DNA of 63,315 bases, counting the filler, from Psammoneis japonica (taxonomy: Eukaryota), in NCBI GenBank assembly GCA_008632985.1. It is 3 parts of 3 records of this genome, joined end to end, with 100 filler letters (N's around TTAATTAATTAA, not from the genome) between each part and the next. Parts side by side here need not be neighbours in the genome. Positions count along the whole stretch, not along the records: positions 1 to 21,993 come from QPGO01000460.1; 2 more parts are not named here. One strand, 5' to 3'. Of this stretch, positions 1-24,059 are shown in pieces. A program made the translations under genes and the position numbers. Position 1 is the stretch's first letter; every line of letters starts with the position of its first letter. The notes under the pieces were generated by a model. The model had not been told where the DNA came from, did not search any database, and saw only the letters and a program-made list of their open reading frames with translations.

Positions 1-1542
1 GGGGAGCATGAAGACGCCACTGCCAAAATGTTGGCTGCCACCTGCTCTGCCATTGACGAAGACCTCATTGCCACCACTCGACTTGCAGGAGCTCAGCACA
101 CACAGGACAGGCAATGCCTGTGTGATCTCTTGAAGAAGCCAGTGACAGGGGGGGGCGGGTGGGCTTTTGTCAAACCTTCCAATCACAACCACAATGGTCG
201 CACTGCCTTCTTTGCACTCAAGAGGCAGGCGGAAGGTCGGCTGCTGCCACCACCCAAAAAAACGTGCCTGTGCACAGATTGCTGCCGCAAAGTGCACCGG
301 ATGGGGTTGTTTTACTTTCGACCAGCATGCTCAACGCCATCAGAAAGCTCACAACGACTTGCCCAAGCTTGATGAGCCGGCAGCCGAGACCAAGAAGGTC
401 TCTGACTTTCTCAAGGGTGTCTCGGACCCTGGGTTGGAGACTGGCAAGAGTGCAGTGGATGGAGACCCAACAAAGCCAGTGGATTTCGAAGCATGCCAGC
501 AGCGTGTGAAGACTCTGGCAGAAAATGCTGAGAACCGCAACGCTGATGCTTGCGGAATCACACCCGTCCAACGCCGCAACAACTGGTGCAGAAACCCTGG
601 ATGCAAGCACCAACCAAAAAAGGACAAGCCCAGGATCAGGGCAGGCCACTGTCCCATTGAAGAGTGGAGTGCTCTTGATGGTCCTGGGCAAGAGCAAGTC
701 AAGAAGCTCTGTGAGGCCAAAAAAGTCAAGAAGAAATGCAAAGCAGCAGCTGCATCTTCAGAGGCTGAGTCGGTTGATGTCGAAACTTGCGATGTTAAAA
801 AGGTGGCTGTTGCCGAGCCTGAACCCAAACCTGCTGATGAACAAAAGGACTCCAAAGAGTTGGGCAAACCTGCTGCCAACGCAGGCAAGCAGCTCAGACG
901 CAGTGCCCACAAGAAACCTCAGAAAGAGGCATGAACAGCTGCTCCAGCACCAAAAAGCACAGAGCCGACTGTTGCTGAACCTGCTGGCACTGTGCATTTG
1001 TCTGGGCAATTCTCAAAGGATGTGTGTCTCTTTGTCATCTGCTGGACATTCAGATGGTGAAGCAACCAATGACTTGGACTCGCGTGCTGATGCGTGTGCT
1101 GTTGGGTCCAATTTTGCAATGCACTCTGACATCGACAAGCACTGTCATGGTGCACCCTTGCTCCGAAGAGCGCGCGCCAATGAAAAACATTCCCATTTGC
1201 ACGGCTGCTGCTGTGTGGGTTGATCCAACTGATGGACAACCACACCTGCTGTCAGTCCATGAGGCCATGTGTTTTGGGGACAGGATGACTGACACTCTGC
1301 TGTGCCCCAACCAACTGCAAGCAAATGGACTGACTGCCCATGACACCCCTCGCCAGTTTGATTCTAACAGCACACACTCTGTTGCTTTCCCTGACTCGAA
1401 GATCAGGGTGCCATTGCACATGCGAGGTGTTGCTTCAGTTTTTGACTCACACAAGCCGACAAAGGAGGATCTGGAGAACCTTCCCCAGCTGGAACTCACA
1501 TCACCCCTGAGATGGGAGCCTTCTGCTGATGCCATGGCGCAC
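1..1542 (+). pseudogene. copia gag C-terminal part and aspartic protease (mutated)
   Basis: gag-like KKVSDFLKGVSDPGLE; protease DLDS(H>R)AD(T>A)C; TLLCPNQLQANG..HDTPRQFD..LTSPLRWEP typical of diatom copia pol. Confidence 0.85.
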
Positions 1543-4085
1543 TGAATGCAAACCAAAACGCGGCTCCCACAAAAAGAAAAAAGAAGTCATGACACGAGGA
1601 CAGCCAATTGGCTGCCTTTGCATTGTTGGCAATGATCGATTCTCGCGCAATTCCATGCATTCCTTGTGGCCACAATTCTGCCTTTGTTTCATGGCTGCAC
1701 CCTCTGCGTGTTTTTCCGCACGCGCTCCTTTGCCAACATGCCATTGTTCCATGATCAGCGACAATCTCATGCAGTGGAAAACGAATTGCGTCCATTTTCA
1801 AATGGCTGATCTCCCAATCTCTCAACTGCTCTCTGTCCACACCTGCCAAGCTCCAAAGACCCCCCCCTCTGCCTGCTGTCCTTTTAAGTTCTCTGCTTCA
1901 TGCAGCGAACACCCTTCCATCTTTGCTGCTTCCAGAAGTGTGAATTCGAGATCAACTCGGCTTGATTTGGATCTTTGCCTGTTGCCAATGCTTCCTGCCA
2001 AGTTCCTGTGCAAGACTCAGCACAAGTTCTACGTGTCATAAAGACATTTTCTGATGGCCTGTTTTCCGGTCATCCAACGGCTCTCCATCTGCACCTGCCT
2101 AGCTCCAATGACCCCCCCTTTCCTCAGTGCCTTTTCAAGTTCTTTGCTCTGTGTGGTGAACTCCTTTTTGTTGTTGCTGCCACCAGAAGTTTGACTTTGA
2201 GACCAACTCGGTGGTTGGTGATGTTTTGGTCCCTGTTTGTGAAATTTGCGGTGTTTGCTCTGTTTCAGATCCCTTCTCACTTTGGAATGTTCCAGCACGG
2301 CTTGCTTCAGTGGAATGATCAGATCCAGCCAGAAGCAAAGAGCCACTCCATTGCTGTGGTTTCAAGTGCTTTGAAGGTGCCAAATCAATTTGCTGTTGCT
2401 GTCACAATTCTGCCTTTGTTTCACGGCCATGCCCTCTGCGTGGTTTTCTGCGCAAGCTCTGGTGCAGATGTTGCCTTTTTCTGACGGTGCAATGACGGCT
2501 CTCACCTGCCTGTTCAGACGTGTTCCTTTGTCGACATGCCATTGTTCTGTGATCATTGACAATCTTGTGCAGTGGAGAACGAATTGCACCCAGCTCTCTT
2601 GGCTCAATCGCTCAACGTTTTTCTCGGTGTTTTTTGTTCTCGCGTGCAAAGTTTCCACACAGGTCTCAGTGCAAATTCTACGTGTTTTGCAAGTCATTTC
2701 AGATGGACAACTCGTCAAATTGCCGATTGCTCTCTCTCCATGCCTCTCAAGCATCAACGACCCCCCTTCTCTCTGTTGTCTGTTCAAGTTTCCTGTGTTG
2801 TGTGGCGAACATCTTCCTGTCGTTGTTCCTTTCAGAAGTTTGAAGAAGAGACCAATTCAGTGTGCATTGGCCAATCTTCCGCGTGCCGACAAGTCCACAC
2901 AAGTTTCAGTGCAAGTTCTGCGTGTCAAGGAAATGTTTTAAAACGGCCGATCTCCCAATCACTCGACTGCTCTCCATCCACAACTGCCAAGCTCCAAAGA
3001 CCCCCCCTCCACCTGCTGTCCTTTCAAGTTCTCTGCTTCATGCAGTGAACACCCTTCCATCTTTGCTGCTTCCAGAAGTGTGAATTTGAGATCAACTCGG
3101 CTTGATTTGGCTTTTTGCCTTTTTGCCGATGCTTCCTGCCAAGTTCCTACGCGAGACTCAGCACAAGTTCTGCGTGTCATGAAAACATTTTCTGACGGCC
3201 TGTTTTCCGATCATCCGACGGCTCTCCATCCATGCCTGCCAAGCTCCAGTGACTCCCCCTTTCCTCAGTGCCTTTTTGAGTTCTTTGCTCCATGTCATGA
3301 ACTCCTTTTTGTTGTTGCTGCTGCCAGAGGTTTGACTTTGAGACCAACTCGGTGGCTGGTGATGTTTTGGTCCCTGTTTGTGAAATTTACGGTGTTTGCT
3401 CTGTTTCAGATCCCTTCTCACTTTGGAGTGTTCCAACATGGCTTGCTTCAGTGGAATGATCAGATCCAGTCAGAAGCAAAGAGCCACTCCATTGCTGTGG
3501 TTTCAAGTGCTTTGAAGGTGCCAAATCAATTTGCCGTTGCTGTCTGTGACACTGCTCCCAGCTGTTCCCGGTGGGCGTCATCATTTGTTGGTGACGCCCA
3601 TCTTGGCTGGTCGCCATGCATTCCTGCCGCGCTGTTGGTGCGCTGGGGGTGTGGGTCAGCTTGTTGCCAGAGTTGCAGGAATTTTGGTTTTGTTTTTAAT
3701 TTGCTGTTGCTGTCTGTGACACCACTCCCAACTGTTCCTGGCGGGCATCATCATTTGTTGGTGACACCCATCTTGGCCAATCGCAATGCACTCCTGCCAC
3801 ACTGTTGGTGCGCTGGGGGTGTGGGTTGGCTTGTTGCCGGAGTTGCAGGGTGGAAGTGCAGCAGCACCACAAATGCAGAATTTTGGTTTTGATGCCATGG
3901 CGCAAAAGGAGGAAGCGCACGCATGTGCCAGTGAGCACAAGAACACACCCGGGCATGCTGCAAAGCACGTGCTTCAAGTGTGGAGGAGGAGATGCATTTG
4001 CAAAATTGCCTCTTTTTCTGTTGGCGATCATTCACATGTTCATTGCCCAATGATTTTGCTGCAGAGCTTGCACGCAGAATTCTGC
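1543..4085. repeat. Nested insertion of an unidentified degenerate repeat built from ~240-250-bp subunits, an ~1.14-kb duplication and a 170-bp tandem duplication
   Basis: Breaks copia between protease and integrase. 1790-2400 matches 2930-3540; subunit anchors near 2660/2900/3153; 3541-3710 matches 3711-3890. Right boundary approximate. Confidence 0.75.
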
Positions 4086-4089
4086 GGGC

Positions 4090-7000
4090 CCAATGTCACA
4101 AAAAGTCCCATCTGGGGCTGGAACCCATCTGAGGGAGACGGGCTGCATGACCGGTGCAACCCAGACATCCACCTGGATTGTGCCAAGCGGAAATGGGTGC
4201 ATGCACTGTTGACCTCAAGTCGTGCATCAACCATCACACCCGAGATGCTCTCCAAGAGGTGGAACATTGGTTTGACGGCCACCAAGAACACCCTCAGAGT
4301 GACGACCCAGGCAGGGGTCTGCAATGTCTGCGTGCCATCCGAGCAGAAAGTCTGGAAGAAAGCCCTGTGGCTTGAGTTCCCTGCTGTCAAGAGACACTTC
4401 TGCTCTGACCAGATGTTTTCGAAGGTCAGGTCAATGCATGGCAAGATGGGAGGAAGCGCATTTGCCAACAGAAGAGGGCATGACAAGCTCCATCCTTGGA
4501 AGAGAAACAGGACCACCCAAATGCCATCATGTCATTTGTGCATGGCGTTGGCATTCTGCAAGTCCTTGTGTTGGATGGCACACCGGAAATGGCAGAAGGC
4601 CAGACCAAGGAGATTTGCAAGGAATGCACCAGGAGGTGTCCACCCCGCACAGCCCCTGGCAGAACCTGGCCGAGGCATCCATCCATGAGTTGAAGAAGAG
4701 AGTCCGAGTGACTCTGCGCCGGACTGGCGCTCACAGGTGACTTTGGTCCCACAGTGCCAAATGGACATGTGATGTCCAACGCATGATTGCGACTGCCAGC
4801 ACATCGGACATGGGAGGACGAGTCCCAGAAGAAGAGGTGACAGGTTCAACACCTGACATTTCATCGCTCTCTCTCTTTGATTGGTGTCAACCTGTCTGCT
4901 GTCACATGCCTGTGGCAGAGTTCCAACACATTGAGAAGTGCATTGGCTTTTGGCTTGGAGCAGCCGACAACTGCAACTGCACTGACGACATGGCATTTGT
5001 CATCCTGCCCGAATCAGGCAGACCCATCATTCGGAAAGATGTGTGGGCCATGCCGGAGGATGACCTTAAAACTCCGGCGATCAAAACGGATCTTGCGTCA
5101 GTCAATCAGGCCTTGATCGAATGACTTGACATCCCGGAACAGGGCGCCAATGCTGACTTCCCTGAACTCCCTGATGACTTCATGGACGAATGGGGCAATG
5201 CTGTCAAACCCATGGAACCCGATGCTTCCAAACCAGAAGCTGATGAGCACACCCTGGAGGGGCCAGATGAACACCTCACAGCTCAAGTCATGTCACCACG
5301 TGGAGGCCAGCTGACTCATGCTGGGGTCATTGCATGCAAATGAGATGATGACGGGGTTCCCATTGGCACTGGGAATGACAACCCTGTCCCAGACTCGAGG
5401 ACACACGATGTGGAGTTTCCTGATGGATCCACTGATTCCTGTGCCACTGATGCAATTGCAAAGAACCTGTTCACTCAGATGGACTCTGAAGGGAATGACT
5501 GCCAGATCATGAAGGATGCAGTCGATCACCGATGTGATGCCCGTGCCGCAACGGCTGATGATGGGTGCATGACAACTGAGACTGGCAGGCACGCTCCTGG
5601 GAGGATGACCGCAGGCTGGGACCTGCAAGTCAAATGAAAGGACGGGACTGCATCCTGGGTTCCCCTCAAGGATTTGAAGGAATCTGACCCAGTCGAGGTT
5701 GCTGAGTGCGCTGCAGCAAACAAGGCAGCTGGTGAACCATCTTTTAACTGGTGGGTCCGAGACGTCTTGCATCACAGGTCAAGGATCCTGAAGAAAGTCA
5801 AGTCGCGTTGCTGGAAACGCGCGCACAAGTTCAGAGCTGAGCTCCCAAAATCTGTTGAGGAAGCTGTGGAGACAGACAACAGAGTGGGGGCTGACTTTTG
5901 GTTCAAGGCCATTGAGAAGGAAATGCGCAACGTCATGCATGTGTTCGAATTCTGTGATGATGACACTGCACCGGTCGGGCACAATCACATTGATTGTCAC
6001 ATGATCTTTGACATCAAGAGCACCCTCCAACGCAAAGCAAGGTTTGTGGCCGGAGGCCATCAAACCGATCCACCCAAGGAATTGACTTGTTCCAGTGTGG
6101 CATCACATGACAGCGCTGGGACAGCATTCACTGCAGCAGCTCTGAATGACCTGGAGGTCCTGAGTGCTGACGTTCAGAGTGCCCACTTGAACGCACACAC
6201 TGAGGAGAAGTGTTGCACTGCTGCTGGCTTGGAATTTGGGAAGCACAATGAAGGAAGGCCGGCAATTGTTGTCTGAGCCTTGTGTGGTCTCAAGTCTTCA
6301 GGTGCAAGATTCAGGGAACACATGGCAGCCACCTTGCATGACGCTGGGTTCGAGTCTTGCAAGGCTGACCCGGACATCTGGATGTGAGCTGCGGTCAAGC
6401 CAGGTGGCTTCAAGCACTGGGAACATGTGCTTGTGTGCATGGATGACTTGTTGTGCATCTCCCATGAACCTCAGAAGGTCGTGGATCATGTGAGCTCCAG
6501 GCACGGGCTCAAGGACGGAAGTGTCTGCGAGCCAGAAGAGTGCTTGGGTGCCCAGATCAGAAAGTGCCAGTTGTCTGACTTGGATGGCAAGCCGCGCTGG
6601 GCCATGTCCTCTGACCTTTGTGTCAAAAGGGCATTGGCCAATGTTGAGTTGGAGCTCAAGAAAACTGGCGGGCCTTCCAACAAAGGCGTTGATGCCCTTG
6701 AGCTCAGGGCATGGGCCTGAGCTGGATGGCTCACCTGAGTTGAGTGCCAAAATGGCCAACTGCTGCCAAGGTTTTGTTGGTGTGCTGCGATGGACAGTTG
6801 AGCTGAGGCAACTGGACATTTTTGTTGCTTCCTCACTCATGTCCTCCTGCTTGGCAGCACCACAAGTTCAACACCTGGGCAAGGTGCTCCATGTCTTTGC
6901 GTGCTTGAAGGCTCGCTCCAAGTCTGCGCCAGTGTTCGACGATGCTGAGCCGGTCTTTGACGAGAGCAGTTTTGCCAAGTGCAACTGGGGAGAACATTGT

Positions 7001-7570
7001 CCTGGTGCGGCTGAACCAATTCCGCTGAACATGCCAGAAGCACGTGGGAACAGCCTGGTGCGGCTGAACCAATTCCGCCGAACATGCCAGAAGCACGTGG
7101 GAACAGCATGACTGCTGCTTGCTTTGTTGGCGCTGATCATGCCAGATGCTGTGTGACGTGCAGGCCCCACACTGGGATCCTGACATTCAACAACGAGCTC
7201 CCATCTTGTGTTGCTCTGAGTGGCAGAATGCCATGGAATCATCCACTTTTGGGTCAGAGTTCATGGCAATGAAGACTGCAGTGGAGCAAATTGAAGCCTT
7301 GCATTGCAAGCTGCGGATGCTGGGAATCCCCATGGATGGAGCCACTGATGTCGTCTGTGACAATGAAGCTGTCTTCAAGAACTCAACTGAGCCGGAGTCT
7401 GCTTTGAAGAAGAAGCACAGTGTGATTGCCTGTCACAGGACTCATGAGGCACAAGCCGCTGGAACAGCACGCATTGCTTGGAAAGACGGGTGCACGAATT
7501 TGGCGGACATGCCAACCAAGTTTGTTGCCTGGGCTGAAGCTCCCGGAAATTGCAAGCGATGTCCTGTGGC
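4090..7570 (+). pseudogene. copia integrase, reverse transcriptase and RNase H (mutated)
   Basis: IN, RT and RH motifs in order across several frames; RT catalytic motif reads EHVLVCMDD at 6421-6447. Confidence 0.92.
7001..7106 (+). repeat. 53-bp tandem duplication inside copia RT/RH, also present in copy B (15131-15236)
   Basis: cctggtgcggctgaaccaattccgc(t/c)gaacatgccagaagcacgtgggaacag x2. Confidence 0.95.
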
Positions 7571-7714
7571 AAGCCCCAAAATGGGGCAAACAGAATGGGT
7601 TTGCTGTGCATGTGCGGCTTTTCTCATCCCCAAATGAAAATGATGCCCTGGAGCAGGGCAGCATCAGGTTGCACTTGTCTGTCAATCTGGCCCAAGTGGA
7701 GCCAGCATCAGTTC

Positions 7715-7906
7715 AAGGGGGCTGAACAAATGCTGGCACACTGTCACGAATGCTGGCAATTCACACACCATTGGCAATTGGTCCACTGTCACTCATTTGG
7801 TGGTCCCAGCAGCATGACATCTCACAACTGTGGAACCTGCTGATGCTGTCCAACACTCTGTCTTGTCTCACACCCAATTCTTGGCTGTCATGGCAGCGTT
7901 TGTTCA
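7715..7906 (+). repeat. Polypurine tract plus truncated 3' LTR (TG start at 7723)
   Basis: aagggggc|TGAACAAATGCTGGCACACTGTCAC follows RNase H; the same sequence starts at 10759 upstream of gag and at 15854. Confidence 0.8.
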
Positions 7907-9497
7907 ATCGCAAAGGCCAAAAAATCACAAAGGGCACAAAATGGCCAAGGGTGCAAAATCACAAAGGGTGCAAAATCACAAAGGGCGCAAAATGGCGGAA
8001 AAGGGCGCAAAATCACAAAGGGCGCAAAATCACAAAGGGCGCAAAATGGCCAAGGGCACAAAATCACAAAGGGTGCACAGTCACAAAGGGTGCAAAACGG
8101 CAGCAAAGGGTGCAAAATCACAAAGGGTGCAAAATGGCCGCAAAGGGTGCAAAATCACAAAGGGCGCAAAATGGCGGCAAAGGGTGCAAAATCACAAAGG
8201 GTGCAAAATGGCCAAGGGTGCAAAATCACAGAGGGTGCAAAATCACAAAGGGTGCAAAATGGTGGCAAAGGGTGCAAAATCACAAAGGGTGCAAAATCAC
8301 AAAGGGAGCAAAATGGCCAAGGGCGCAAAGTCGCAAAGGGCTCAAAATCACAAAGGGTGCAAAATGGCCAAGGGTGCAAAATCACAAAGGGTGCAAAATC
8401 ACAAAGGGTGCAAAATGGCTGCAAAGGGCACAAAATCACAAAGGGCGCAAAATGGCGGCAAAGGGCGCAAAATCACAAAGGGTGCAAAATCACAAAGGGC
8501 GCAAAATCACAAAGGGTGCAAAATCACAAAGGGTGCAAAATGGCCAAGGGTGCAAAATCACAAAGGGTGCAAAATGCCGGCAAAGGGTGCAAAATCACAA
8601 AGGGTGCACAATGGCCAAGGGTGCAAAATCACAAAGCACAGAAAATGGCGGCAAAGGGCGCAAAATCACAAAGGGTGCAAAATGGCCAAGGGTGCAAAAT
8701 CACAAAGGGTGCAAAATCACAAAGGGCAGAAAATGGCGGCAAAGGGCTCAAAATCACAAAGGGTGCAAAATGGCCGCAAAGGGTGCAAAATCACAAAGGG
8801 CGCAAAATGGCGGCAAAGGGCGCAAAATCACAAAGGGTGCAAAATGGCCAAGGGTGCAAAATCAAAAAGCGCAGAAAATGGCGGCAAAGGGCGCAAAATC
8901 ACAAAGGGCGCAAAATGGCCAAGGGTGCAAAATCACAAAGGGTGCAAAATCACAAAGGGCAGAAAATGGCGGCAAAGGGCTCAAAGTCACAAAGGGTGCA
9001 CAATGGCCAAGGGTGCAAAATCACAAAGGGTGCAAAGTCACAAAGGGTGCAAAATGGCGGCAAAGGGTGCAAAATCACAAAGGGTGCAAAATGGCCAAGG
9101 GCGCAAAATCACAAAGGGCGCAAAATCACAAAGGGTGCAAAATGGCCAAGGGTGCAAAATCACAAAGGGCACAAAATGGCGGCAAAGGGTGCAAAATCAC
9201 AAAGGGTGCAAAATCACAAAGTGTGCAAAATCACAAAGGGAGCAAAATGGCCAAGGGCGAAAATCGCAAATGGTGCAAAATCACAAAGGGCAGAAAATGG
9301 TGGCAAAGGGCGCAAAATCACAAAGGGTGCAAAATGGCCAAGGGCACAAAATCACAAAGGGTGCAAAGTGGCGGCAAAGGGCGCAAAATCACAAAGGTTG
9401 CAAAATGGCGGCAAAGGGCGCAAAATCACAAATGGTGCAAAATGGCGGCAAAGGGCGCAAAATCACAAAGGGTGCAAAATGGCCAAGGGCGCAAAGT
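7907..9497 (+). repeat. Complex satellite of CAAAATCACAAAGGGTG (17), CAAAATGGCCAAGGGTG (17) and CAAAATGGCGGCAAAGGGTG (20) units
   Basis: Directly visible tandem array of three interleaved unit types. Confidence 0.97.
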
Positions 9498-9566
9498 TGC
9501 TGGCCTTCCTTCGTTGTGCTTCCCAAATTCCAGGCCAGCAGCAGTGCAACACTTNCTCCTCAGTGG
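9498..9566 (-). other. ~68-bp inverted fragment of copia RT at the satellite inversion point
   Basis: Reverse complement matches ~6199-6266 (actgaggagaagtgttgcactgctgctggc...gaaggaaggcc); contains a single N. Confidence 0.85.
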
Positions 9567-9856
9567 CCATTTTGCGCCGTTGGCCATTTTGCTCCCTTTG
9601 TGATTTTGTGCCCTTGGCCATTTTGCTCCCTTTGTGAATTTGCGCCCTTGCCCATTTTGCACCCTTTGTGATTTTGCACCCTTTGCCGCCATTTTGCACC
9701 CTCAGGCAGAGGGGGCAAAGAGAAAGGATAAAGAAAAAATGAAAAACGCCAGCAAGCCAAAGAAGGACACGCCGACGTTGCTCCCTTTGTGAATTTGCGC
9801 CCTTGGCCATTTTGCACCCTTTGTGATTTTGCACCCTTTGCCGCCATTTTGCACCC
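9567..9856 (-). repeat. Same satellite in inverted orientation, with a 155-bp duplicated junction segment
   Basis: cacccttttgtgattttg-type units; ctcaggcagagggggcaaagagaaagg at both 9701 and 9856. Confidence 0.9.
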
Positions 9857-10551
9857 TCAGGCAGAGGGGGCAAAGAGAAAGGACAAAGAAAAAATGAAAA
9901 ACGCCAGCAAGCCAAAGAAGGACACGCCGAAGACAGGAAGAGTGGCGGCAGCACAACCGCCACCCACCCCAACAAATTTGGCAAAGAAAAAAAGATGCAC
10001 AACTGGCCGCGGAACAAAAAACAACAAAAATGAAGTTTGGGCAGTTGGGCACATGCATCGACCACAAAAATGTTTCTGTGGAGCACCGCAGTCTCGAAAT
10101 GGCTGCACTGCTGTGAACCCCACAACATTCGTTGTCCGCTTTTTGTTTTTGGGTTTGTGGTGATTTCAGCATTCAGTTGCTTGTTTTGGGTGTTGCTTCC
10201 AGTCAAGCTGTTGGTCACAACATGTGAAAACGATGCTCGACTGATTCGATTTGTGAAACGACGTGTCCTGAGCTCGACTGTGGACGCGAGTTAGATGCGG
10301 GCACGCGCCCATTTTGCATGGTCTGTCTGTTGACAGGAGCAAAATTGCATTGACAGCTTTGGCAAATGCACGCCCTGAGTTCGACTGTGAATGAGAAACA
10401 GACACGGGTGTGCATCCATTTTTGCATGGTCTGTCCTTCAACCGTGGCCACTTGGCATCGATCAGGTGGGGTCTGTCATTCAACCGGAAGCGTTTCGTGC
10501 CACCTCATGACCCAAACCCAAACCCTCCCATCCCAAATGCACCACATGTGA

Positions 10552-10758
10552 TGGTGGCAAAGGGCACAAAATCACAAAGGGCACAAAATGGCCAAGGGCG
10601 CAAAATCACAAAGGGCGCAAAATGGCAGCAAAGTGTGCAAAATCACAAAGGGTGCAAAATGACATGGCGGCAAAGGGTGCAAAATTGCAAAGGGCGCAAT
10701 GTGGCGGCAAAGGGTGCAAAATCACAAAGGGTGCAAAATCGCAGAGGGTGCAAAATCA
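10552..10758 (+). repeat. Satellite tract abutting the 5' LTR of copia copy B
   Basis: Same 17/20-bp units; ...gcaaaatca|TGAACAAA junction. Confidence 0.92.
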
Positions 10759-13700
10759 TGAACAAATGCTGGCACACTGTCACAAACATGGGCAGCTCAT
10801 GTGCTGTTGGTGATTGGCCCACTGTCGCTTGTTTGGTGGTCCCAGCAGCGCAACATCTCACAGCTCTAGAACCTGTTGATGCTGTCCAACACTCTGTCTT
10901 GTCCTGTGCCCAGTTCTTGGCTGTCATGGTGGCATTTGTTCACTTTGTCAGAGCCAATGCGCTGTGATGTTCATCGTCTGGAACGGGCATCGCAAACAGC
11001 GCAACGCATGTTGCAACACATCGATTTTTGTGGCAAGAGCCATGTTGGTCCCATGGTTGCTCGCGCAATCGCTGAGTCTTTTGCACATGCCAACATTCAT
11101 GGATGTGAACGACACGCTCTTGCAGACCAGAGCTGTGATCCGTTGGACATGACGTCAGTGGACGGAATGTTTGATCACGTGGATGGAACATGTTGGCTGA
11201 GACATGCAAACATCTGTGATGAAGACAACACAATGATTTGTGTGCTGAGGTCTGTCAATTGACTGTGCGCATTTGTTTGACCAAAGTGCACTGTCAAATG
11301 GTTTGGACACACTGCACATGTGGGTGCATGTCTGTTGGAAATTGTTGCTCAGGAGTGTCTTGTGCGTTGTGGATGCAATGTGCAGATGCGCACCTGCACA
11401 GCCGGTCAAGGTTTTGCTGCTGTTCAGGACTTGGAACAGGCCCCTTTGGCAGAGATTGCTGCTGTGACTGAGGGCATGGTGAAAAGCGTGGATGCCACCG
11501 CCAACCCTCAAGTCCACTTCCCACACCTGGTGAATCGCAAGTTCAAGGCACTGCGCACATGGATTGACTGCCACAGAGCCCGAAACCAACAGCCGACTGC
11601 TGCTCTCTTTGCTGGTGACGTCATTGGGACATGGACGGCACGTCTCACAGAACTGGAACAATTCAAGTCAGCGGACTTGGACGATGTGTCGGCTGCCAAG
11701 ACGGCCATGGAACTCAAGAATCTGCATGGCTGGCCTGCCTTCCAAGAGTTGCTGGAGAGTGAGCCACGCCATCACCATTTTGCCATTGCCGGCACACCCC
11801 TTGTCTGCCTGGCTGGGGAGCATGAAGACGCCACTGCCAAAATGTTGGCTGCCACCTGCTCTGCCATTGACGAAGACCTCATTGCCACCACTCGACTTGC
11901 AGGAGCTCAGCACACACAGGACAGGCAATGCCTGTGTGATCTCTTGAAGAAGCCAGTGACAGGGGGGGGGCGGGTGGGCTTTTGTCAAACCTTCCAATCA
12001 CTGCCACAATGGTTGCACTGCCTTCTTTGCACTCAAGAGGCAGGCGGAAGGCTCGGCTGCTGCCACCACCCAAAAAAACTGTGCCTGTGCACAGATTGCT
12101 GCCGCAAAGTGCACCGGATGGGGTTGTTTTACTTTCGACCAGCACGCTCAACGCCATCAGAAAGCTCACAAGAAGGTCTCTGACTTTCTCAAGGGTGTCT
12201 CCGACCCTGGGTTGGAGACTGGCAAGAGTGCAGTGGATGGAGACCCAACAAAGCCAGTGGATTTCGAAGCATGCCAGCAGCGTGTGGAGACTCTGGCAGA
12301 AAATGCTGAGAACTGCAACGCTGATGCTTGCGGAATCGCACCCGTCCAACGCCGCAACAACTGGTGCAGAAACCCTGGATGCAAGCACCAACCAAAAAAG
12401 GACAAGCCCAGGATCAGGGCAGGCCACTGCCCCATTGAAGAGTGGAGTGCTCTTGATGGTCCTGGGCAAGAGCAAGTCAAGAAGCTCTGTGAGGCCAAAA
12501 AAGTCAAGAAGAAATGCAAAGCAGCAGCTGCATCTTCAGATGCTGAGTCGGTTGATGTCGAAACTTGCGATGTTAAAAAGGTGGCTGTTGCCGAGCCTGA
12601 ACCCAAACCTGCTGATGAACAAAAGGACTCCAAAGAGTCGGGCAAACCTGCTGCCAATGCAGGCAAGCAGCTCAGACGCAGCGCCCACAAGAAACCTCAG
12701 AAAGAGGCATGAACAGCTGCTCCAGCACCAAAAAGCACAGAGCCGACTGTTGCTGGACCTGCTGGCACTGTGCATTTGTCTGGGCAATTCTCAAAGGATG
12801 TGTGTGTCTCTTTGTCATCTGCTGGACATTCAGATGGTGAAGCAACCAATGACTTGGACTCGCGTGCTGATGCGTGTGCTGTTGGGTCCAATTTTGCAAT
12901 GCACTCTGACATCGACCACACTGTCATGGTGCACCCTTGCTCCGAAGAGCATGCGCCAATGAAAAACATTCCCATTTGCATGGCTGCTGCTGTGTGGGTT
13001 GATCCAACTGATGGACAACCACACCTGCTGTCAGTCCATGAGGCCATGTGTTTTGGGGACAGGATGACTGACACTCTGCTGTGCCCCAACCAACTGCAAG
13101 CAAATGGACTGACTGCCCACGACACCCCTCGCCAGTTTGATTCTGACAGCGCACACTCTGTTGCTTTCCCTGACTCGAAGATCAGTGTGCCATTGCACAT
13201 GCGAGGTGTTGCTTCAGTTTTTGACTCACACAAGCCGACAAAGGAAGATCTGGAGGACCTTCCCCAGCTGGAACTCACATCACCCCTGAGATGGGAGCCT
13301 TCTGCTGATGCCATGGCACGCTGAATGCAAACCAAAGTGCGGCTCCCACAAAAAGAAAAAAGAAGTCATGACACGAGGACAGCCAATTGGCTGCCTTTGC
13401 ATTGTTGGCAATGATCGATTCTCGCGCAATTCCATGCATTCCTTGTGGCCACAATTCTGCCTTTGTTTCACGGCTGCACCCTCTGCGTGTTTTTCCGCAC
13501 GCGCTCCTTTGTCGACATGCCATTGTTCCATGATCAGCGACAATCTCATGCAGTGGAAAACGAATTGCGTCCAGCTCTCTTGGCTCAATTGCTTGACGTT
13601 CTTCTTGACATTTTTTGTTCTCACTTGCAAAGTTTCCACACAGGTTTCAGTGCAAATTCTGTGTGTTCTGCAAGTCATTTCAGATGAACGACTTGTCAAA

Positions 13701-16037
13701 CTGCCGATTGCTCTCTCTCCATGCCTCTCAAGTGTCAACGACCCCCCTTCTCTCTGTTGTCCATTCAAGTTTCCTGTGTCATGTGGCGAACATCTTCCTG
13801 TCATTGTTCCTTGCAGAAGTTTGAAGAAGAGACCAGCTCAGTGTGCGTTGGCCAACCTTCCGTGTGCCGACAAGTCCACACAAGTTTCAGCACAAGTTCT
13901 GCGCATCAAGGAAACATTTTCAAATGGCCGATCTCCCAATCTCTCAACTGCTCTCTGTCCACACCTGCCAAGCTCCAAAGACCCCCCCTCTGCCTGCTGT
14001 CCTTTTAAGTTCTCTGCTTTATGCAGCGAACACCCTTCCATCTTTGCTGCTTCCAGAAGTGTGAATTCGAGATCAACTCGGCTTGATTTGGATCTTTGCC
14101 TGTTGCCAATGCTTCCTGCCAAGTTCCTGTGCAAGACTCAGCACAAGTTCTACGTGTCATGAAGACATTTTCTGACGGCCTGTTTTCCGATCATCCGATG
14201 GCTCTCCATCTGCACCTGCCAAGCTCCAATGACCCCCCCTTTCCTCAGTGCCTTTTCAAGTTCTTTGCTCTGTGTGGTGAACTCCTTTTTGTTGTTGCTG
14301 CCACCAGAAGTTTGACTTTGAGACCAACTCGGTGGTTGGTGATGTTTTGGTCCCTGTTTGTGAAATTTACGGTGTTTGCTCTGTTTCAGATCCCTTCTCA
14401 CTTTGGAATGTTCCAGCACGGCTTGCTTCAGTGGAATGATCAGATCCAGCCAGAAGCAAAGAGCCATTCCATTGCTGTGGTTTCAAGTGCTTTGAAGGTG
14501 CCAAATCAATTTGCTGTTGCTGTCACAATTCTGCCTTTGTTTCACGGCCATGCCCTCCACGTGGTTTTCTGTGCAAGCTCTGGCGCAGATGTTGCCTTTT
14601 TCTGATGGTGCAATGACGGCTCTCACCTGCCTGTTCAGACGTGTTCCTTTGTCGACATGCCATTGTTCTGTGATCATTGACAATCTTGTGCAGTGGAGAA
14701 CGAATTGCACCCAGCTCTCTTGGCTCAATCGCTCGACGTTTTTCTTGGTGTTTTTTGTTCTCGCATGCAAAGTTTCCACACAGGTCTCAGTGCAAATTCC
14801 GCGTGTTTTGCAAGTCATTTCAACGCCTTGAGCTCAGGGCATGGGCCTGAGCTGGATGGCTCACCTGAGTTGAGTGCCAAAATGGCCAACTGCTGCCAAG
14901 GCCTTGTTGGTGTGCTGCGATGGACAGTTGAGCTGAGGCGAGTGGACATTTTTGTCGCTTCCTCACTCATGTCCTCCTGCTTGGCAGCACCACGAGTTCA
15001 ACACCTGGGTGAGGTGCTCCATGTCTTTGCATGCTTGAAGGCTCGCTCCAAGTCTGCGCCAGTGTTCGACAACGCTGAGCCGGTCTTTGACGAGAGCAGT
15101 TTTGCCAAGTGCAACTGGGGAGAACATTGTCCTGGTGCGGCTGAACCAACTCCGCCGAACATGCCAGAAGCACGTGGGAACAGCCTGGTGCGGCTGAACC
15201 AATTCCGCCGAACATGCCAGAAGCACGTGGGAACAGCATGACTGCTGCTTGCTTTGTTGGCGCTGATCATGCCAGATGCTGTGTGACGTGCAGGCCCCAC
15301 ACTGGGATCCCAACATTCAACAACGAGCTCCCATCTTGTGTTGCTCTGAGTGGCAGAATGCCATGGAATCATCCACTTTTGGGTCGGAGTTCATGGCAAT
15401 GAAGACTGCAAGTGGAGCAAATTGAAGCCTTGCATTGCAAGCTGCGGATGCTGGGAATCCCCATGGATGGAGCCACTGATGTCGTCTGCGACAATGAAGC
15501 TGTCTTCAAGAACTCAACTGAGCCGGAGTCTGCTTTGAAGAAGAAGCACAGTGCGGTTGCCTGTCACAGGACTCATGAAGCACAAGCCGCTGGAACAGTG
15601 CGCATTGCTTGGAAAGATGGGTGCACGAATTTGGCGGACATGCTGACCAAGTTTGTTGCCTGGGCTGAAGCTCCGGGAAATTGCAAGCCATGTCCTGTGG
15701 CAAGCCCCAAAAGGGGACAAACAGAATGGGTTTGCCGTGCATGTGCGGCTTTTCTCATCCCCAAATGAAAATGATGCCCTGGAGCAGGGCAGCATCAGGT
15801 TGCACTTGTCTGTCAATCTGGCCCAAGTGGAGCCAGCATCAGTTCAAGGGGGCTGAACAAATGCTGGCACACTGTCACGAATGCTGGCAATTCACACACC
15901 ATTGGCAATTGGTCCACTGTCACTCATTTGGTGGTCCCAGCAGCATGACATCTCACAACTGTGGAACCTGCTGATGCTGTCCAACACTCTGTCTTGTCTC
16001 ACACCCAATTCTTGGCTGTCATGACAGCGTTTGTTCA
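10759..16037 (+). mobile_element. copia copy B: 5' LTR, gag, protease, same nested insert (13322-14821), internal deletion of IN and most of RT, RH, PPT, truncated 3' LTR (15854-16037)
   Basis: 11815 onward is near-identical to position 1 onward; 14822-16037 is near-identical to 6693-7906; gag-like VHFPHLVNRKFKALRTWIDC after the LTR. 5' LTR end not determined. Confidence 0.92.
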
Positions 16038-16893
16038 ATCGCAAAGGCCAAAAAATCACAAAGGGCACAAAATGGCCAAGGGTGCAAAATCACAAAGGGT
16101 GCAAAATCACAAAGGGCGCAAAATGGCGGAAAAGGGTGCAAAATCACAAAGGGCGCAAAATGGCCAAGGGCACAAAATCACAAAGGGTGCACAGTCACAA
16201 AGGGTGCAAAATGGCAGCAAAGGGTGCAAAATCACAAAGGGTGCAAAATGGCAGCAAAGGGTGCAAAATCACACAGGGTGCAAAATGGCCAAGGGCGCAA
16301 AATCACAAAGGGTGCAAAATGGCCAAGGGTGCAAAATCACAGAGGGTGCAAAATCACAAAGGGTGCAAAATGGTGGCAAAGGGTGCAAAATCACAAAGGG
16401 TGCAAAATCGCAAAGGGTGCAAAATCACAAAGGGAGCAAAATGGCCAAGGGCGCACAATCACAAAGGGCGCAAAATGGCAGCAAAGGGTGCAAAATCACA
16501 AAGGGTGCAAAATGGCGGCAAAGGGTGCAAAATCACAAAGGGTGCAAAATGGCCAAGGGTGCAAAATCACAAAGGGCGGAAAATGGCAGCAAAGGGCTCA
16601 AAATCACAAAGGGTGCAAAATGGCCAAGGGTGCAAAATCACAAAGGGTGCAAAATCACAAAGGGTGCAAAATGGCGGCAAAGGGTGCAAAATCACAAAGG
16701 GTGCAAAATCGCAAAGGGTGCAAAATCACAAAGGGAGCAAAATGACCAAGGGCACAAAATCACAAAGGGAGCAAAATGGCCAAGGGCACAAAAGGGACAA
16801 GGGCACAAAATCACAAAGGGTGCAAAATTGCAATGGGTGCAAAATGGCGGCAAAGGGTGCAAAATCACAAATGGCACAAAATGACCAAGGGCT
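16038..16893 (+). repeat. Satellite array, second large block
   Basis: Same units; opens with the same aatcgcaaaggccaaaaaatcac junction as 7907. Confidence 0.97.
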
Positions 16894-19800
16894 TGGGTGA
16901 GTTGGTGCAGTGCGGGTGCTTTTGTGATGGAGAAAGTTTGTGAAATCCACAAAGCAGTTGTTGTGTGAGTTTGAGGATGAGTTTCCTGTGCGCGGGAATG
17001 GTTTGAAATGAAATGAATGACGAGTTGTGACAGGTTCACAACTGGACAAAATTGTGGAATTGCAAAAGTGATTGTTGCGCAAATGGAAAGATTTTGAAAG
17101 GCAAATGTTTGATGCATTGAACAGAGCTGCAAAACAAGATGCCTGTGCAATGCTTGCAGATGAAATGAGCGCACTTTTTTTTGGCTTTTGGATGGCAAGT
17201 GGACATGTGCAAATTGAGCGCAGTTGAAACCAAAACAAATTTTTCTGATTTTTGCAATGGGAGATTGACACAGGAACAAACAAGAATGGCTGCATGACAG
17301 ACACCCCTGGATTGCCAGTTGATGACCTGCTTGCAAAGGAGCAACGGACAAAAACCGTTCTTGTGGCCTTCTTTGACAACTGGGCTGTCCATGAAACTTT
17401 TGAAGATCTGCGTGCATTTGCTCCAAAGAGTCAGTTTGAAATGCTCTCCACCAACTCCAGCACCATTGTTGCCATGAATGTGCTCAATTACACTGTCATG
17501 GGCAACTTTGTCATCATCAGTCAAGAGAAAATGGGGAATGAATGCTGCCAGCTGCGTGTGTTTGTTGACTCGACCATGGTTAAATTGATTGAACCAAAGC
17601 TGAGGGTGAAGCTTCTTTTGTCTGTTTGGAAGCAAAGTCCACTCAAATTGTCCTGAAGAAGAAGTTCCCAGCACAAGCGTTGTTGACCATTTTGCCATTG
17701 CTTCCAACTTCGACCCAAGGTTGAGTGCCCACAATCATGGGAGCTCCCACACTTGCAAGGTGAGACCCAAAAGTCTGTTGCACAAGGGCATTGAGATGAG
17801 TGTTGGTGGAGTCAATCCAAGATTGGAGTGGCACTGAAGAAGAGGTTCCCAGCGCAAGTGTTGTTGACCATTTCACCATTGCTTCCAACTGCAACCCAAT
17901 GCTGAGTGCCCACAATCTTGGGAACTCCCACACTTGCAAGGTGAGACCCAAAAGTCTGTTGCACAAGGGCATTGAGATGAATGTTGGTGGAGTCAAAAGT
18001 GACATTGAGAGCAAGGAGGTCACTGTTGGCAACAGTTGGGCATTGCAATGGATCCAAGAGGGCTTTGATGTCCAGGAACGCAGAGATCTGGCCATCTTCT
18101 GTCCTGACATTTTCATTGCACACAGCTGCAGAGATGCCAAATGGGTTGCAAGCTGTGCTGCAAGCAAGAGAAGCAAGCAATGTGGCCTTGCAAGATGGCT
18201 CCTGACCATTTGTGTGGATGCCACATGCGACAATGCCCAACAGCCCAGGCACTTGGACAGGAGGTGGAGGAACATGGGCTGTGTGCTGCCTCTGTTCTGG
18301 ACAGAACATCAGAGAGGCAAAAAAGGGTGCATGAGCCACAGGGCATTGTTGCCTGCCTTGCAGTTCTTGGTGCACTCCTTCATTTGTTGGGAGCACACCT
18401 CTCTGACTGAAATGCAGGTTTGCTCATTGGTGCTCCACATTTGTCACTCATTTCCACCCTTGCTCAGACGTGCTCCAGGTCCAGGTGGGACCTCGCACCA
18501 CTGAACTGTGACATCGACAGTTTTTTGAATCGCGCAGCATGTCGCGCACGTGCATTTCTACGTGATTTTGGCAAAATTTTGTGTCATTTTACAGTGCAAT
18601 TGTCAGGCAATCCATTCAACAACTTTCAATGTTTTTTTTCTTCTGCGCCATTCTCGAGTGTCTCAAGAATGGCACAGGGCAGGCAAATCATCCAGAGCTT
18701 TGAGCACTGACAGAGACATGTGCACTGCAAACTTGGCCACTCATTTCGTGTCGAAGACAAGCATGTCCATTGACCAAACACAAACCACAGAGCTCGTCGC
18801 ATGCAGAATTCCATGGGGCAAATGTCACAAAAAGCCCTGCCTGGGACTGGAGCCCATCCTCACTCATTGTTGTCTTCCACATTCCCACCTGAAACAAGAC
18901 AAAATTGTGCTGGACCGGCACATGCATGTTCTGCTCTCAGCAACTCCATCAAATTTTCACACTCTTTGTCACCACTGAGTGATGTCATTGAAATTTTCCG
19001 TTGAAATTGTTGCACGCAATGCTTTCATGTTGCACGTTGTCACATCATGTGCCTGTGCAGCAAAAACAGTGATCACACCACAAACGCTCACCCTGTTCTC
19101 AGCCAGTCAACTGCGCTGCAATCAGATTTGTCCTGCCTGTGTGCTGTCTCTGTGGAATTTCTGCCCTGTGAACTGGTTGCTTGGCTGGATGAAAACAAGA
19201 AAAAGGCACACCGGCCCAACCCAAATCAAACAGGAATTGCCACAATGCACTTGTTTTTTGTTCTCCTCCCCGAGCCCTTCTGGTCATTCCTTCCTGCTAA
19301 ATTGCCCTCATTTTCCGGGAATCACCCAAAAGGGCAAGGTGGCTCCCCCTTGCCCTTGCCACTTTTGGGAATCCCCAAATGGGCAAAACCAAACTGAGCT
19401 GTTGGTGCGCCATTGACAGGACAGGACAAGTTCTCCGCCCACCTTGGGTGCTCCGTTGGTTGGTCTCTTGCTCTCGCAGACATTGACATTCGCCAAGAAA
19501 GATCACCGGACACATTCCCCGCAGGTGCAAAATCTGGATCTGACAATTCTTTGGCTGACAAAAAAGACTCCATTTGTTCTGTGGAGACGGGTGGCACAGA
19601 ATCCTCTCTGGAGGTGATGATGCCCTTCTTGGGGGATGACAAGTTTTCTGACGATCATTTTGATGACAGCGGCCACTGCGATGACACTGACAAAAGCAAT
19701 GACAATGCCAAAAGCACCTGTGTTTCCTCTGGAAAATCCACTCATGCCAAGAAATGTGATGCATCATGCCCCACTTGCCACCCACTCTTCATCTTCTGTG

Positions 19801-21950
19801 TGCCATTTTCTGATCTGCTCTTTTTGTTCAATTTTGACAGCATTGAAGACTGACAAAGATGCGATTGTCTTCACAAGTGGCAATGGGGAACACCACATTG
19901 CAAAAATTTGTTTCTGGAGGACAGCAGAAGTGCAACGCAGGAGAAAGCTCTTTCTTTCCAAGGTTGACCGGACTCCTGGCCCCAACTTCCTGGTGCTGCC
20001 TCATTTGTGGTGCAATCCTGAGAAGGGATTGTGTCACTTTTTTGAGCAATGCCTTGCCATCAACAACACCGTGGGCCTCTCTCTTGGCTGCAGCTGATTC
20101 ATCAGGGAGCACTCTGGCCCCACGCATTTGCACAAGGGTGATTTGTCCTGTTGTCATCTAGAAAAAAATTCCCAGATGATGGTTGTCCATGGGAGCATGT
20201 GTCATTGAGATCCAAGGGCGATTTGATGCAGGATGCATTGGTGTTTCCTGCGTCGGCTGTGCTGAATCTTTGGTTGTCCCTTGCAACAACCCCAACACTC
20301 AACATTTGTCATGTCTTGGATGTTCATGGGTGTGCACATCTGGCCATTGTGGCAAGCTGTCAAACTGGATTCAACCGTTTTTTCCACATGGTCACCAAGC
20401 ATTTGGATGACTTCAGGTGTGCACCAGAGTTGGCTGCTCTGACACATTTCTGTCATGCCATCAATTTGTTTGCCTCAGCAACTGGCAACATTGGAGTCAC
20501 CCCATGCATGATGAACCCAAGCAAGGGCAACTTCATCTCTGCACAATGCACCGATCATGATGCAATTGCAGGCAACGATGAGGACCTTCTTGCCAATGAT
20601 GCAATGGGTGACCGTTTTGGCAGCAAGAGGAGATGCATTGATTCAGGAAACAAGGAAGAGCACCAGTGCATTGCATCAAGTAAAAAACTTGACAACTTGG
20701 TTGTGAACACAAGAGCTTGCAAAATGGCCACTGATGTGATGTCGTTGTTGAATTGGATCAACGAAAACACAGGAGCTGCGCACTTTTAACACTCTGTCAT
20801 CAAAAAGAAGGTTCAAGAATTGTGCAATGGCTGGTTTTGTGAAACTGACATCAACAAGTTCTGGCTGATGATCACTTCACAAGTGCGTGTTGGATGTGGC
20901 GTTGTTGTTTCGGGACACAACTTGGCTTGTCCAGTGACTCCTCTTGGTGCTGCAAAGCAGCTGGCTCACCTGACAAATGATGAAAGGGCCAGTGCACCAC
21001 GGGTTTTGTGCAACTCTTTTTCTGGAAACACAAGAGACCTCTCTTGATGTGTGAGACCAGTGCGTGTTTCATGGACGGGTTGCCGTTGCTCTGAAATTCT
21101 TGTCGGCAATGTGCAAACAGCCTTGTGTCACCACATGTTGACTCACACGCACTTGCGAGCTTGCAAGCAACAGAGTGAATGATGACTTTGGCCACCCCTG
21201 CTTCATCTTTGCATGTCCTGATGATTCTCGCTGGGCATTCATTGTTGGTTTCATCATCCATGTCAAAGCCGTTGGCTGCCCAATCAAGTCAGGCTCCATC
21301 TTTGGATCTGCACTGGAGACATGCACACGTGCACTCACCATTGCTCAGCCTCACTTCATTCCACAATTCAAATGTTTGCTGGCTGGGTTCAAGCTCTTGG
21401 TTTGCTTTGAGGAATGGATGGATTGGTTTCTTGCCTGATTCCTCGTTTGCCATCTTGTTTTTTCCAAAACAATCCGCGCAACAAACTTGGTCGAAATCCC
21501 CGCATTTGAAAACAAAGTGAGGCATCTTCCTTGTTGTGGTTGTGCTGGACGTGCCTTTTGCTGCTTTTTCACCATCAACACACTGACGCATCTTTGTTGG
21601 GCATCCAGCGTGTCAATGCAATTGTCAACAAGCATGGACTCACACACCCTTTTGCAAGTTTGGCAGGTGAAGTGTTCTTCTCCATGCTTCTGGACTGTCT
21701 CTGAAATTTTCTTTGCCTTGGTCTTCAAAGGTCTCTCTCCCATTGATGCACATGCTTGCGCTGGCCCACTCATGAACATTTGATTGAAGAGTGTGTGCAG
21801 CTGTGCATGATCAACAGTGGAGTCACCCTGAAAGAGGGTTGTGTCCATGCATGACACCACACATTTGGTGTGGAAAGCAAGTGCTTGGTGGTCCTGCTGC
21901 ATTTCCTTGGGAAGCATGCGTGAATGATGACAATGTGCGTGATGGCACAG
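16894..21950. mobile_element. TpA- and CpG-depleted relics of unidentified transposons; the minus-strand 20900-21950 part weakly resembles the C-terminus of Plavaka/CACTA-like transposases
   Basis: Mutational signature shared with the copia; minus-strand fragments ..ACLQCRSKDGA..DWA.. and CPARIIRT..VIIHS recall the Y-R-A...W-x-D-W / P-A-R-I pattern; 181-bp tandem duplication at 17653/17834. Family call is weak. Confidence 0.45.
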
Positions 21951-21993
21951 GGGCGCAAAATGGCCAAGGGCGCAAAATCACAAAGGGGTCAAA
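21950..21993 (+). repeat. Satellite units running into the scaffold gap
   Basis: gggcgcaaaatggccaagggcgcaaaatcacaaagggg. Confidence 0.9.
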
Positions 21994-22093
21994 NNNNNNN
22001 NNNNNNNNNNNNNNNNNNNNNNNNNNNNNNNNNNNNNTTAATTAATTAANNNNNNNNNNNNNNNNNNNNNNNNNNNNNNNNNNNNNNNNNNNN
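21994..22093. other. Artificial 100-bp scaffold gap/linker
   Basis: N run with central TTAATTAATTAA (stops in all frames); identical linker at 42676. Confidence 0.97.
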
Positions 22094-23598: not shown

Positions 23599-24059
23599 GG
23601 TGGAAATGTTGATGTATGTCGAAAGCTTTCTTCTGAACTATGAGAAGGCGAGTCTGGAGAGCGAGCTTCACCGCAGTTCGCTTCGCACGTGTCACGACTG
23701 AGAATTCGAAAGAAATCGAAATCTAACAGTGATGGACGGTGGGCACTCTATTCTTTCTTTCGAGATCGGAATAGCCGCAACTCGAGAAAAGTCTCATGGC
23801 TCTTTCAAAGTAAGCTAGCACCACGTGTTGCCATGGTCACTACTTACGTCTGTGAGGCCGAAACGGAGAAGAGTCGCATGTCTCATGCTGTGTTGTTTGA
23901 CATCATGGTGGGAAAATCCAAAAATCCAGGAGAAACGATCATTCTATCTACGGATTGATGATTCCGGATTCCTGTTCCATCACCGCAGCGAACAGCGCGT
24001 GGAATTTGCTCCCAACAACCACAAACTGAATCCTCATTGACACCCTCAAGCATTCTTAC

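Follow-up and report, generated by a model that had tools for sequence, protein, structure and literature searches.

We analysed a 63,315-nucleotide stretch of the genome of the diatom Psammoneis japonica (NCBI GenBank assembly GCA_008632985.1; hereafter the window), which comprises three contigs chained end to end and to which the composition claims made below for this genome apply. It contains four discrete blocks from which the dinucleotide TpA has been almost entirely removed, with a corresponding surplus of TpG and CpA. We consider it likely that a DNA-level process changes TpA to TpG or CpA in this diatom, acting in discrete transposon-derived domains and sparing the adjacent genes and spacers. 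What the window itself shows is the signature and its direction, the action on both strands, the confinement to blocks and the overlap with CpG loss. Hypermutation of TpA to TpG/CpA is already known from one chlorarachniophyte, Bigelowiella natans, for which A>G/T>C changes at TpA only were reported in 2026 (Mettrop et al., bioRxiv 10.64898/2026.01.13.699255), so that the view of the initial annotation of this DNA, that no pathway with this signature had been described, no longer stands. What is new is the end state in a diatom, near completion and located in CpG-decayed transposons; a literature search turned up no account of such a loss in a diatom.

TpA-free blocks in the window

The largest of the blocks (block 1, positions 1-21993) holds two copies of a copia-type retrotransposon and arrays of satellite, along with 5 kb without recognisable content, and is both TA-free, as we call this condition, and CpG-poor. 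Its TA content, put at about 30 by eye in the initial annotation, is exactly 31 (observed/expected ratio, O/E, 0.023), where 740 would be expected at the O/E of 0.551 of the non-block DNA; the other counts are 597 for CG (0.43), 2387 for TG (1.78) and 2297 for CA (1.63). The depletion extends over the whole block, as all 22 one-kb windows along it have a TA O/E of 0.00-0.08 and a TG/CA mean of 1.57-2.01. Outside block 1 there are 1278 TA in 41.3 kb, or about 1.9 per 60 bases; the 'several per 60-bp line' given for genic DNA in the initial annotation was a slight overstatement. Since block 1 stops at an artificial contig linker, its right border, which falls inside satellite, is an assembly break and not a biological edge.

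Blocks 2 (24112-27900), 3 (50574-52640) and 4 (57855-59757) lie within contigs and have flanks of normal composition, block 2 being placed between an Hsp20 gene on one side and a lipase gene on the other. They retain nine TA (O/E 0.036, with CG at 0.14), six TA (0.040, CG 0.19) and three TA (0.023, CG 0.12), respectively. The four blocks together amount to 29.8 kb, with TA O/E values of 0.02-0.04 and CG O/E values of 0.12-0.43, in contrast to 0.56 and 0.95 for the long open reading frames (ORFs) of the non-block DNA and 0.58 and 1.06 for the DNA between ORFs. Because the inter-ORF DNA keeps its TA as the ORFs do, relaxed selection alone is not enough to explain the loss. At the block edges, TA and CpG density shift jointly within about 100 bases. 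Relative to the background ratios, TA is short by 981 and CG by 1129 in the four blocks (2111 jointly), TG is in surplus by 1049 and CA by 917 (1966 jointly), and it appears that TA and CG, both of which are self-complementary pyrimidine-purine steps, have been converted to TG/CA.

The loss had been described as restricted to repeats. It is indeed confined to transposon-like, CpG-poor blocks, with genes and spacers keeping their TA, but no second copy of blocks 2 and 3 was found within the window, and the restriction to repeats may not hold for them. In block 4, 58453-58891 is repeated in direct orientation at 59383-59810 (88% identical by self-BLAST), and in block 2 no terminal or inverted repeats were found. 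Pfam, homologue searches and the search for copies within the window gave no match for blocks 2-4 or for the TA-free DNA at 16900-21993, which has no recognisable protein or repeat family (no Pfam match at E ≤ 0.01, no copy elsewhere in the window). For the 415-aa ORF at 23886-25130 (- strand) of block 2, 3550 candidates contained no homologue, and Atlas gave no usable hit either. The Pfam scan covered 150 of the 157 block ORFs of at least 90 aa, the other seven being three satellite ORFs and four block-edge ORFs, and returned only two weak matches, to RVT_2 (E 0.0076) and to WLS-like_TM (E 0.003), of which the latter is probably due to chance.

As TAA and TAG are gone from the TA-free blocks, TGA is the sole remaining stop, and overlapping ORFs of 200-625 aa are found on both strands; in the satellite, three frames are open throughout. 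Long chance ORFs are expected when TGA is the only stop, so that ORF length is no evidence of genes in the blocks. The 31 surviving TA of block 1 are preceded by T in 18 cases, C in 10, A in two and G in one (pyrimidine in 28 of 31), and seven of them stand in the context TACG (2030, 2679, 3148, 3388, 14151, 14368 and 18559). This may reflect a refractory context or non-independent sites, several of them being common to paralogous copies, and we claim no motif. A separate observation concerns 53444-53835, where 391 bases are without TA yet hold nine CpG, beside the very TA-rich spacer at 52641-53444; this gap could be due to chance or be a small, younger target.

Direction and sequence context of the changes

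The direction of the changes was read from a dead Ty1/copia-type element in block 1, named E1, which was located at 1014-7526 (+ strand) by tblastn with a reference set of 10 intact polyproteins of 1281-1385 aa. The same search placed its protease at 1014-1608, its integrase at 4134-4606 and its reverse transcriptase (RT)/RNase H at 4624-7526, all on the + strand, and residues 5-179, 295-432 and 441-1356 of protein P0122 map collinearly to 1014-1608, 4200-4606 and 4624-7409. The order protease, integrase, RT and RNase H is that of Ty1/copia long terminal repeat (LTR) retrotransposons. E1 contains frame breaks, and in-frame TGA stops where its relatives carry Arg. A phmmer search with the ORF at 5638-6273 (+ strand) retrieved 4764 relatives (best E 1e-71, 57-62% identity). 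The relatives matched by this ORF carry PF07727, whereas E1 itself reaches only 16.3 bits for RVT_2 in Pfam, under the cut-off of 31.6, because the element is decayed. No LTR pair was found around E1 in self-BLAST, and its 5' end lies beyond the window. The second copy, E2, is an internally deleted version of E1 at 11815-16883 (+ strand; self-BLAST and tblastn), in which 11815-14822 is 98% identical to 1-2701, and 14826-16883 is 93% identical overall to 6696-8809, with 97.6% in the non-satellite part (14826-16130 versus 6696-8000).

For the comparison with the intact relatives we took into account only alignment columns in which at least six of the 10 were aligned and at least 70% agreed, setting all others aside. 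Tyr is conserved in 28 such columns, of which 22 lie in E1 and six in E2, and it is kept in none of them, having been replaced by Cys in 16, His in eight, Trp in three and Phe in one. Other conserved residues are mostly kept, namely Trp in 16/17, Phe in 18/20, Cys in 5/5, Met in 5/5 and Gly in 53/61. The seven copia motif examples singled out in the initial annotation hold in this alignment, as the codons at 5707 (TGC), 6088 (TGT), 6184 (CAC), 6283 (TGT), 6424 (CAT), 6436 (TGC) and 7305 (TGC) correspond to Tyr in 7-10 of the 10 relatives, and the last of the seven, the ACH example near 7430, agrees with the alignment by eye.

Codon-base tallies were made in E1 for residues with fixed first two codon bases, with Leu, Arg and Ser omitted. 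At the 22 ancestral TA of Tyr codons, A>G is found in 14 cases, T>C in seven and A>T in one, with none kept, which makes 21 of 22 changes transitions. In contrast, an A in second position that follows A, C or G changed to G in only 4 of 98 cases (Fisher p 1e-9 versus 14/22 at TA), and at AA in 2 of 30. The T of the dinucleotide behaves in the same way, since first-position T>C is found in 7/22 cases before A and in 0/31 before G or T (p 0.001). The step that spans two codons is also affected: an ancestral first-position A with T now preceding has become G in 10 cases and C in two and is never kept, whereas with another base preceding it is kept in 57 cases and has become G in seven. For first-position A after A the proportion of A>G is 3/8, with small numbers, and pooling positions 1 and 2 gives A>G in 5/38 at AA versus 6/124 after C or G. 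In all, 34 of 34 inferred ancestral TA of E1 have been lost. The loss is therefore a polarised change of TA to TG/CA, at the DNA level and on both strands; both this direction and the excess of A>G at TpA over other contexts had been anticipated in the initial annotation and are borne out by these counts.

CpG decay in the same DNA

E1 also carries the traces of CpG decay. First-position G>A is found after C in 13 of 25 cases, versus 4 of 131 elsewhere, and 18 of the 48 conserved Arg columns have changed to His, Gln, Cys, Trp or stop. CpG decay is thus present in the blocks and about half complete in E1, while the loss of TA is complete; if both decay exponentially, the rate at TA would be more than five times the rate at CpG. 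The presence of CpG decay fits the 5-methylcytosine (5mC) of diatom transposons, which is DNMT5a-dependent (PMC9998398).

Two known processes were considered as causes of the TA loss and rejected, in agreement with what had been argued earlier. CpG decay acts on CG only, and TAY codons hold no CpG yet 22 of 22 have been lost. Fungal repeat-induced point mutation (RIP) makes TA and would raise TpA, whereas here the TA O/E is 0.02 and the direction is from TA to TG/CA.

Relatives of the copia family

The copia family to which E1 belongs is not TA-free by nature, since relatives in metagenomes have normal TA: of 352 related loci that were confirmed, the best 80 have a TA O/E of 0.44-0.96, and none of their 1447 500-bp windows has one TA or fewer. 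Intact, active TA-free copies with working motifs, which would have pointed to another explanation, were not seen.

Relatives nearly without Tyr do occur, and make up 4/150 and 3/115 of two sets of relatives. Those with zero or one Tyr in public data are P0229 and P0222 (Logan), P0234 and P0267 (JGI/IMG), and P0325 and P0313 (ENA). When aligned, P0229, P0222, P0234, P0325 and P0313 have Cys or His at conserved Tyr positions, and P0325 and P0313, though closely related, differ (His versus Cys) at the Tyr of NAYLNA. P0267 aligns poorly after about 130 residues and has His only at the AEYA position. As read from these proteins, the signature of TA loss also exists outside the window.

Place of action and alternative explanations

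Of the targets, the one characterised best is an LTR retrotransposon, and the Tyr codon outcomes on its sense strand are TG and CA in a ratio of 14:7 (binomial p 0.19), with A>G being the commoner class. Both points would suit RNA-level A-to-I hyper-editing of retrotransposon transcripts by an ADAR-like enzyme, fixed by reverse transcription and re-insertion, as would the preference of ADAR for U upstream of the edited A that is noted in the B. natans preprint (bioRxiv 10.64898/2026.01.13.699255). We nevertheless find this route very improbable, because T>C on the sense strand accounts for 7 of the 21 Tyr transitions, a class that editing of sense RNA followed by reverse transcription cannot produce, and because retroelement nature is seen for E1 and E2 and not for blocks 2-4. 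To our knowledge, ADAR is known only from animals. The resident paralogues also point to change in place: four larger paralogous pairs disagree, CA versus TG, at 29 sites, where a CpG-only model expects 8.4 if rates are equal at all CpG, an expectation that uneven rates would raise. These disagreements fit a history in which each resident copy lost its ancestral TA by separate mutations. Transitions dominate the differences between paralogous segments in general (252 versus 42 transversions in eight pairs), and this, together with the common borders of the TA and CpG losses, within about 100 bases, and with A>G at AA being perhaps slightly raised (the 5/38 and 6/124 given above), agrees with an origin without any dedicated mutator, as a by-product of methylated silenced chromatin through errors of DNA polymerase eta (Pol eta) at WA (W being A or T), biased mismatch repair or GC-biased gene conversion. 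The proportions of A>G at TA (14/22), at AA (2/30) and at all non-TA sites (4/98) are, however, unlike a WA spectrum or a general AT>GC conversion, so that Pol eta, one of the candidates proposed in the initial annotation, fits poorly. In addition, TA loss is complete and CpG loss only about half so, and in B. natans the signature is on or off between lines, at about 1000 times the background (bioRxiv 10.64898/2026.01.13.699255). A by-product of this kind is therefore unlikely in our view.

Avoidance of UpA/TpA is common, and the host DNA of the window already has a TA O/E of 0.55, as might be seen if selection purged TA because a TA-cutting nuclease, TA-inserting transposons or UpA-directed RNA decay act on it. 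Selection of this sort is highly improbable here, since conserved catalytic motifs and every conserved Tyr codon have been destroyed, E1 has stops and frame breaks, the non-coding satellite and the unrecognisable DNA are equally TA-free, and the relatives are TA-normal, with no intact TA-free copy with working motifs seen. An artefact of sequencing, base-calling or assembly would gain from the facts that block 1 stops at a contig break and that the stretch consists of contigs chained by linkers. On the other hand, blocks 2-4 sit inside contigs with normal flanks, and contigs assembled from run X1 reads match block 2 with 0 differences over 23856-24269 (left border included), 24625-25013, 25089-25693 and 25672-26277, and have one difference and one gap over 26520-27351. 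The depth of run X1 across block 2 is 59-113, similar to that of the flanks. Each site has a fixed outcome, TG or CA, which is common to paralogues, and the mixed TG/CA calls expected if a modified base gave different readings on the two strands were not seen in the run X1 contigs. Nor do these contigs show TA where the assembly has TG or CA over the identical spans of block 2, an outcome that would have contradicted the original proposal. We regard an artefact as extremely improbable.

Some points weigh against a DNA-level process in transposon-derived domains, beyond the assumption of equal CpG rates behind the expected 8.4. The evidence for the term 'transposon-derived' comes from E1, E2 and the satellites. 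The read comparison covers block 2 and a single study, which may be the assembly's own source. E1 and E2 are 98% identical and their TG/CA states are mostly common to both, from which it follows that most of the TA loss predates the E1/E2 duplication; they also have four residual TA in common, while 27 of 90 CpG sites differ, so that the process is either no longer active on E1 and E2 or skips some contexts. The four differences of TA versus TG/CA between them could be new TA formed by ordinary transitions, as we estimate that about 2.6 would arise in this way from 522 TG/CA sites. Finally, identity of mechanism with B. natans would have to be argued from the likeness of the signatures.

Proposed process and its implications

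In the process that we propose, TpA would be changed to TpG or CpA by A:T>G:C transitions on either strand, in target domains that are CpG-decayed and presumably 5mC-marked and silenced. It would reach completion faster than CpG decay and destroy coding capacity, with every conserved Tyr codon lost; the effect would be like that of fungal RIP, with the opposite chemistry, and the process would be of the same kind as that in the integrated viruses of B. natans. An enzyme targeted to the TA-free domains may carry it out, possibly by adenine deamination at TpA (A to inosine, read as G) rather than by a thymine-directed route, and either DNA methylation or chromatin state may act as the targeting cue. 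As TA is self-complementary, the sequence cannot separate adenine deamination from a thymine-directed route, and the latter would be a live alternative. A wider proposal, which we put forward tentatively and hold with clearly less confidence than the process itself, is that diatoms have an active 5mC- or chromatin-guided TpA mutator, either an adenine deaminase or a thymine-modifying enzyme, which would be homologous to the B. natans system and ancestral to much of the Stramenopila-Alveolata-Rhizaria (SAR) lineage. In a bolder form, a single dual A/C deaminase would make both the TpA and the CpG losses.

The occurrence in a diatom suggests that the process is widespread among marine protists and not a curiosity of one species, and it moves the hunt for the enzyme to a group with transformable model species. 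This is the first link of TpA hypermutation to CpG-decayed transposons, by which the targeting cue, be it methylation or silent chromatin, becomes testable. There is also a consequence for annotation, as Tyr-free elements with TGA as the only stop fall under Pfam cut-offs and are overlooked or mis-called as long ORFs. If a SAR-wide active mutator exists, it would constitute a genome defence resembling RIP, of opposite chemistry and faster than CpG decay, and a natural enzyme for A:T>G:C change in double-stranded DNA would be of interest for base-editing research.

Other features of the window

The contigs are separated by artificial linkers at 21994-22093 and 42676-42775, which have the form N44-TTAATTAATTAA-N44 with stops in all six frames, and since they are artificial, adjacency across them is not physical. 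In block 1, a 17-bp satellite with the unit AATCACAAAGGGCGCAA is present in about 90 copies 3' of E1 (7906-9495, + strand; Tandem Repeats Finder and self-BLAST), and the same methods detect further satellite arrays at 9564-9930 (inverted), 10558-10758 and 16037-16892. The 17-bp satellite trails the copia pol region in both E1 and E2 and is partly inverted. All the arrays are TA-free, and their units vary between CG, TG and CA, which fits CpG decay.

The host genes provide the contrast to the blocks. An Hsp20 gene at 22735-23637 (- strand; Pfam HSP20, E 4e-16) adjoins block 2 and is normal in TA and CpG, and a CLC chloride-channel gene is found at 30113-32899 (+ strand; Pfam Voltage_CLC, E 6e-65, with a CBS domain). 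The closest relatives of the CLC protein are diatom proteins, with identities of up to 60%, those named being from Nitzschia, Cylindrotheca, Amphora, Seminavis and Thalassiosira, which places the window in diatoms and probably in a pennate one. Pfam further identifies a class-3 lipase, a class-V aminotransferase, a lysine methyltransferase and an M64 peptidase. In DNA of normal composition, long open frames without a Pfam family run over 33005-36664 (1219 aa), 47328-50021 (897 aa) and 46039-47736 (565 aa), all on the - strand, and the latter two overlap internal repeats at 46220-48070 (71-77% identity).

Within the CLC gene region, at 30250-31966, read-built contigs show many linked differences at about one third of the depth, as would be expected of two haplotypes that have diverged or of a close paralogue. 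The contigs of a second run, X2, omit 102 bases at 29373-29474, on the minus strand and with GT..AG ends, beside a lipase-like ORF; this is probably an intron. As its contigs skip this minus-strand GT..AG intron, run X2 is probably RNA-derived, though it is labelled 'DNA?'. Its cover is nearly nil over about 24086-28388, which we do not take as evidence of silence.

Comparison with known systems

Fungal RIP, like the process proposed here, consists of targeted, dinucleotide-specific transitions on both strands, which kill transposons and leave sharp compositional blocks. The chemistry is different, as RIP changes C:G to T:A (mainly CpA>TpA), makes TA and lowers GC, whereas here TA is destroyed; RIP is also tied to duplicated DNA and to a premeiotic stage. 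Deamination of 5mC occupies the same blocks and has the same products, TG and CA, but it acts on CG and is slower, with about half of the CpG lost versus all of the TA. The editing of animal retroelements by ADAR and APOBEC3 is likewise deaminase-driven hypermutation as a defence against mobile elements, and ADAR prefers U before the edited A. Their substrates are RNA or single-stranded cDNA and the marks fall on one strand, in contrast to the changes on both strands found here, which look in-place, and APOBEC gives C>U. A thymine-modifying system exists within the SAR lineage: the 5-hydroxymethyluracil of dinoflagellates is the product of a TET/JBP enzyme and is placed preferentially at TA and TC, mostly on repeats that also carry 5mC, with transposons among its targets (PMC11572971). 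It is a silencing base modification, with no T>C mutational trace reported.

The closest parallel is B. natans, and the following account is drawn from the preprint (bioRxiv 10.64898/2026.01.13.699255), which does not mention diatoms. In mutation-accumulation lines, 231 of 302 new nuclear point mutations fell in two integrated viral regions, and in 230 of these 231 the change was A>G or T>C, without exception at TpA. They occurred in 11 of the 15 lines, with a rate of about 6e-7 per site per generation (on a scale of about 1e-7 to 1e-6), and the authors read the switching of the signature between lines as regulation. The targets are integrated DNA of nucleocytoplasmic large DNA viruses and virophages, the main target being single-copy, and an ADAT2-like adenine deaminase is proposed by the authors as a hypothesis. 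In the B. natans genome there are 324 nearly TpA-free coding sequences, with RT and DDE domains over-represented among them, and 124 clusters of windows in which TpA is low while CpA+TpG is high.

The two cases differ in the host, a chlorarachniophyte (Rhizaria) there and a diatom (Stramenopila) here, and in that mutations were caught arising in B. natans, whereas here only the end state is seen. The large viral region of B. natans is mildly depleted (rho 0.45), while the blocks described here are essentially cleared; every one of them is also CpG-poor, and the preprint contains no CpG or methylation analysis. They are alike in the changes themselves, A>G or T>C at TpA only and TpG plus CpA on either strand, as seen here in 21 of the 22 changes at ancestral TA. 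In both, discrete regions of foreign DNA are affected, a mobile origin being seen here for E1, E2 and the satellites, with the host DNA spared. The composition is low in TpA and high in CpA+TpG in both, with cluster cut-offs of rho ≤0.43 and ≥1.52 in B. natans and values of 0.02-0.04 and 1.7-1.9 here, and the enrichment of RT and DDE domains among the TpA-free coding sequences of B. natans has its counterpart in the copia RT element of the Psammoneis japonica window.

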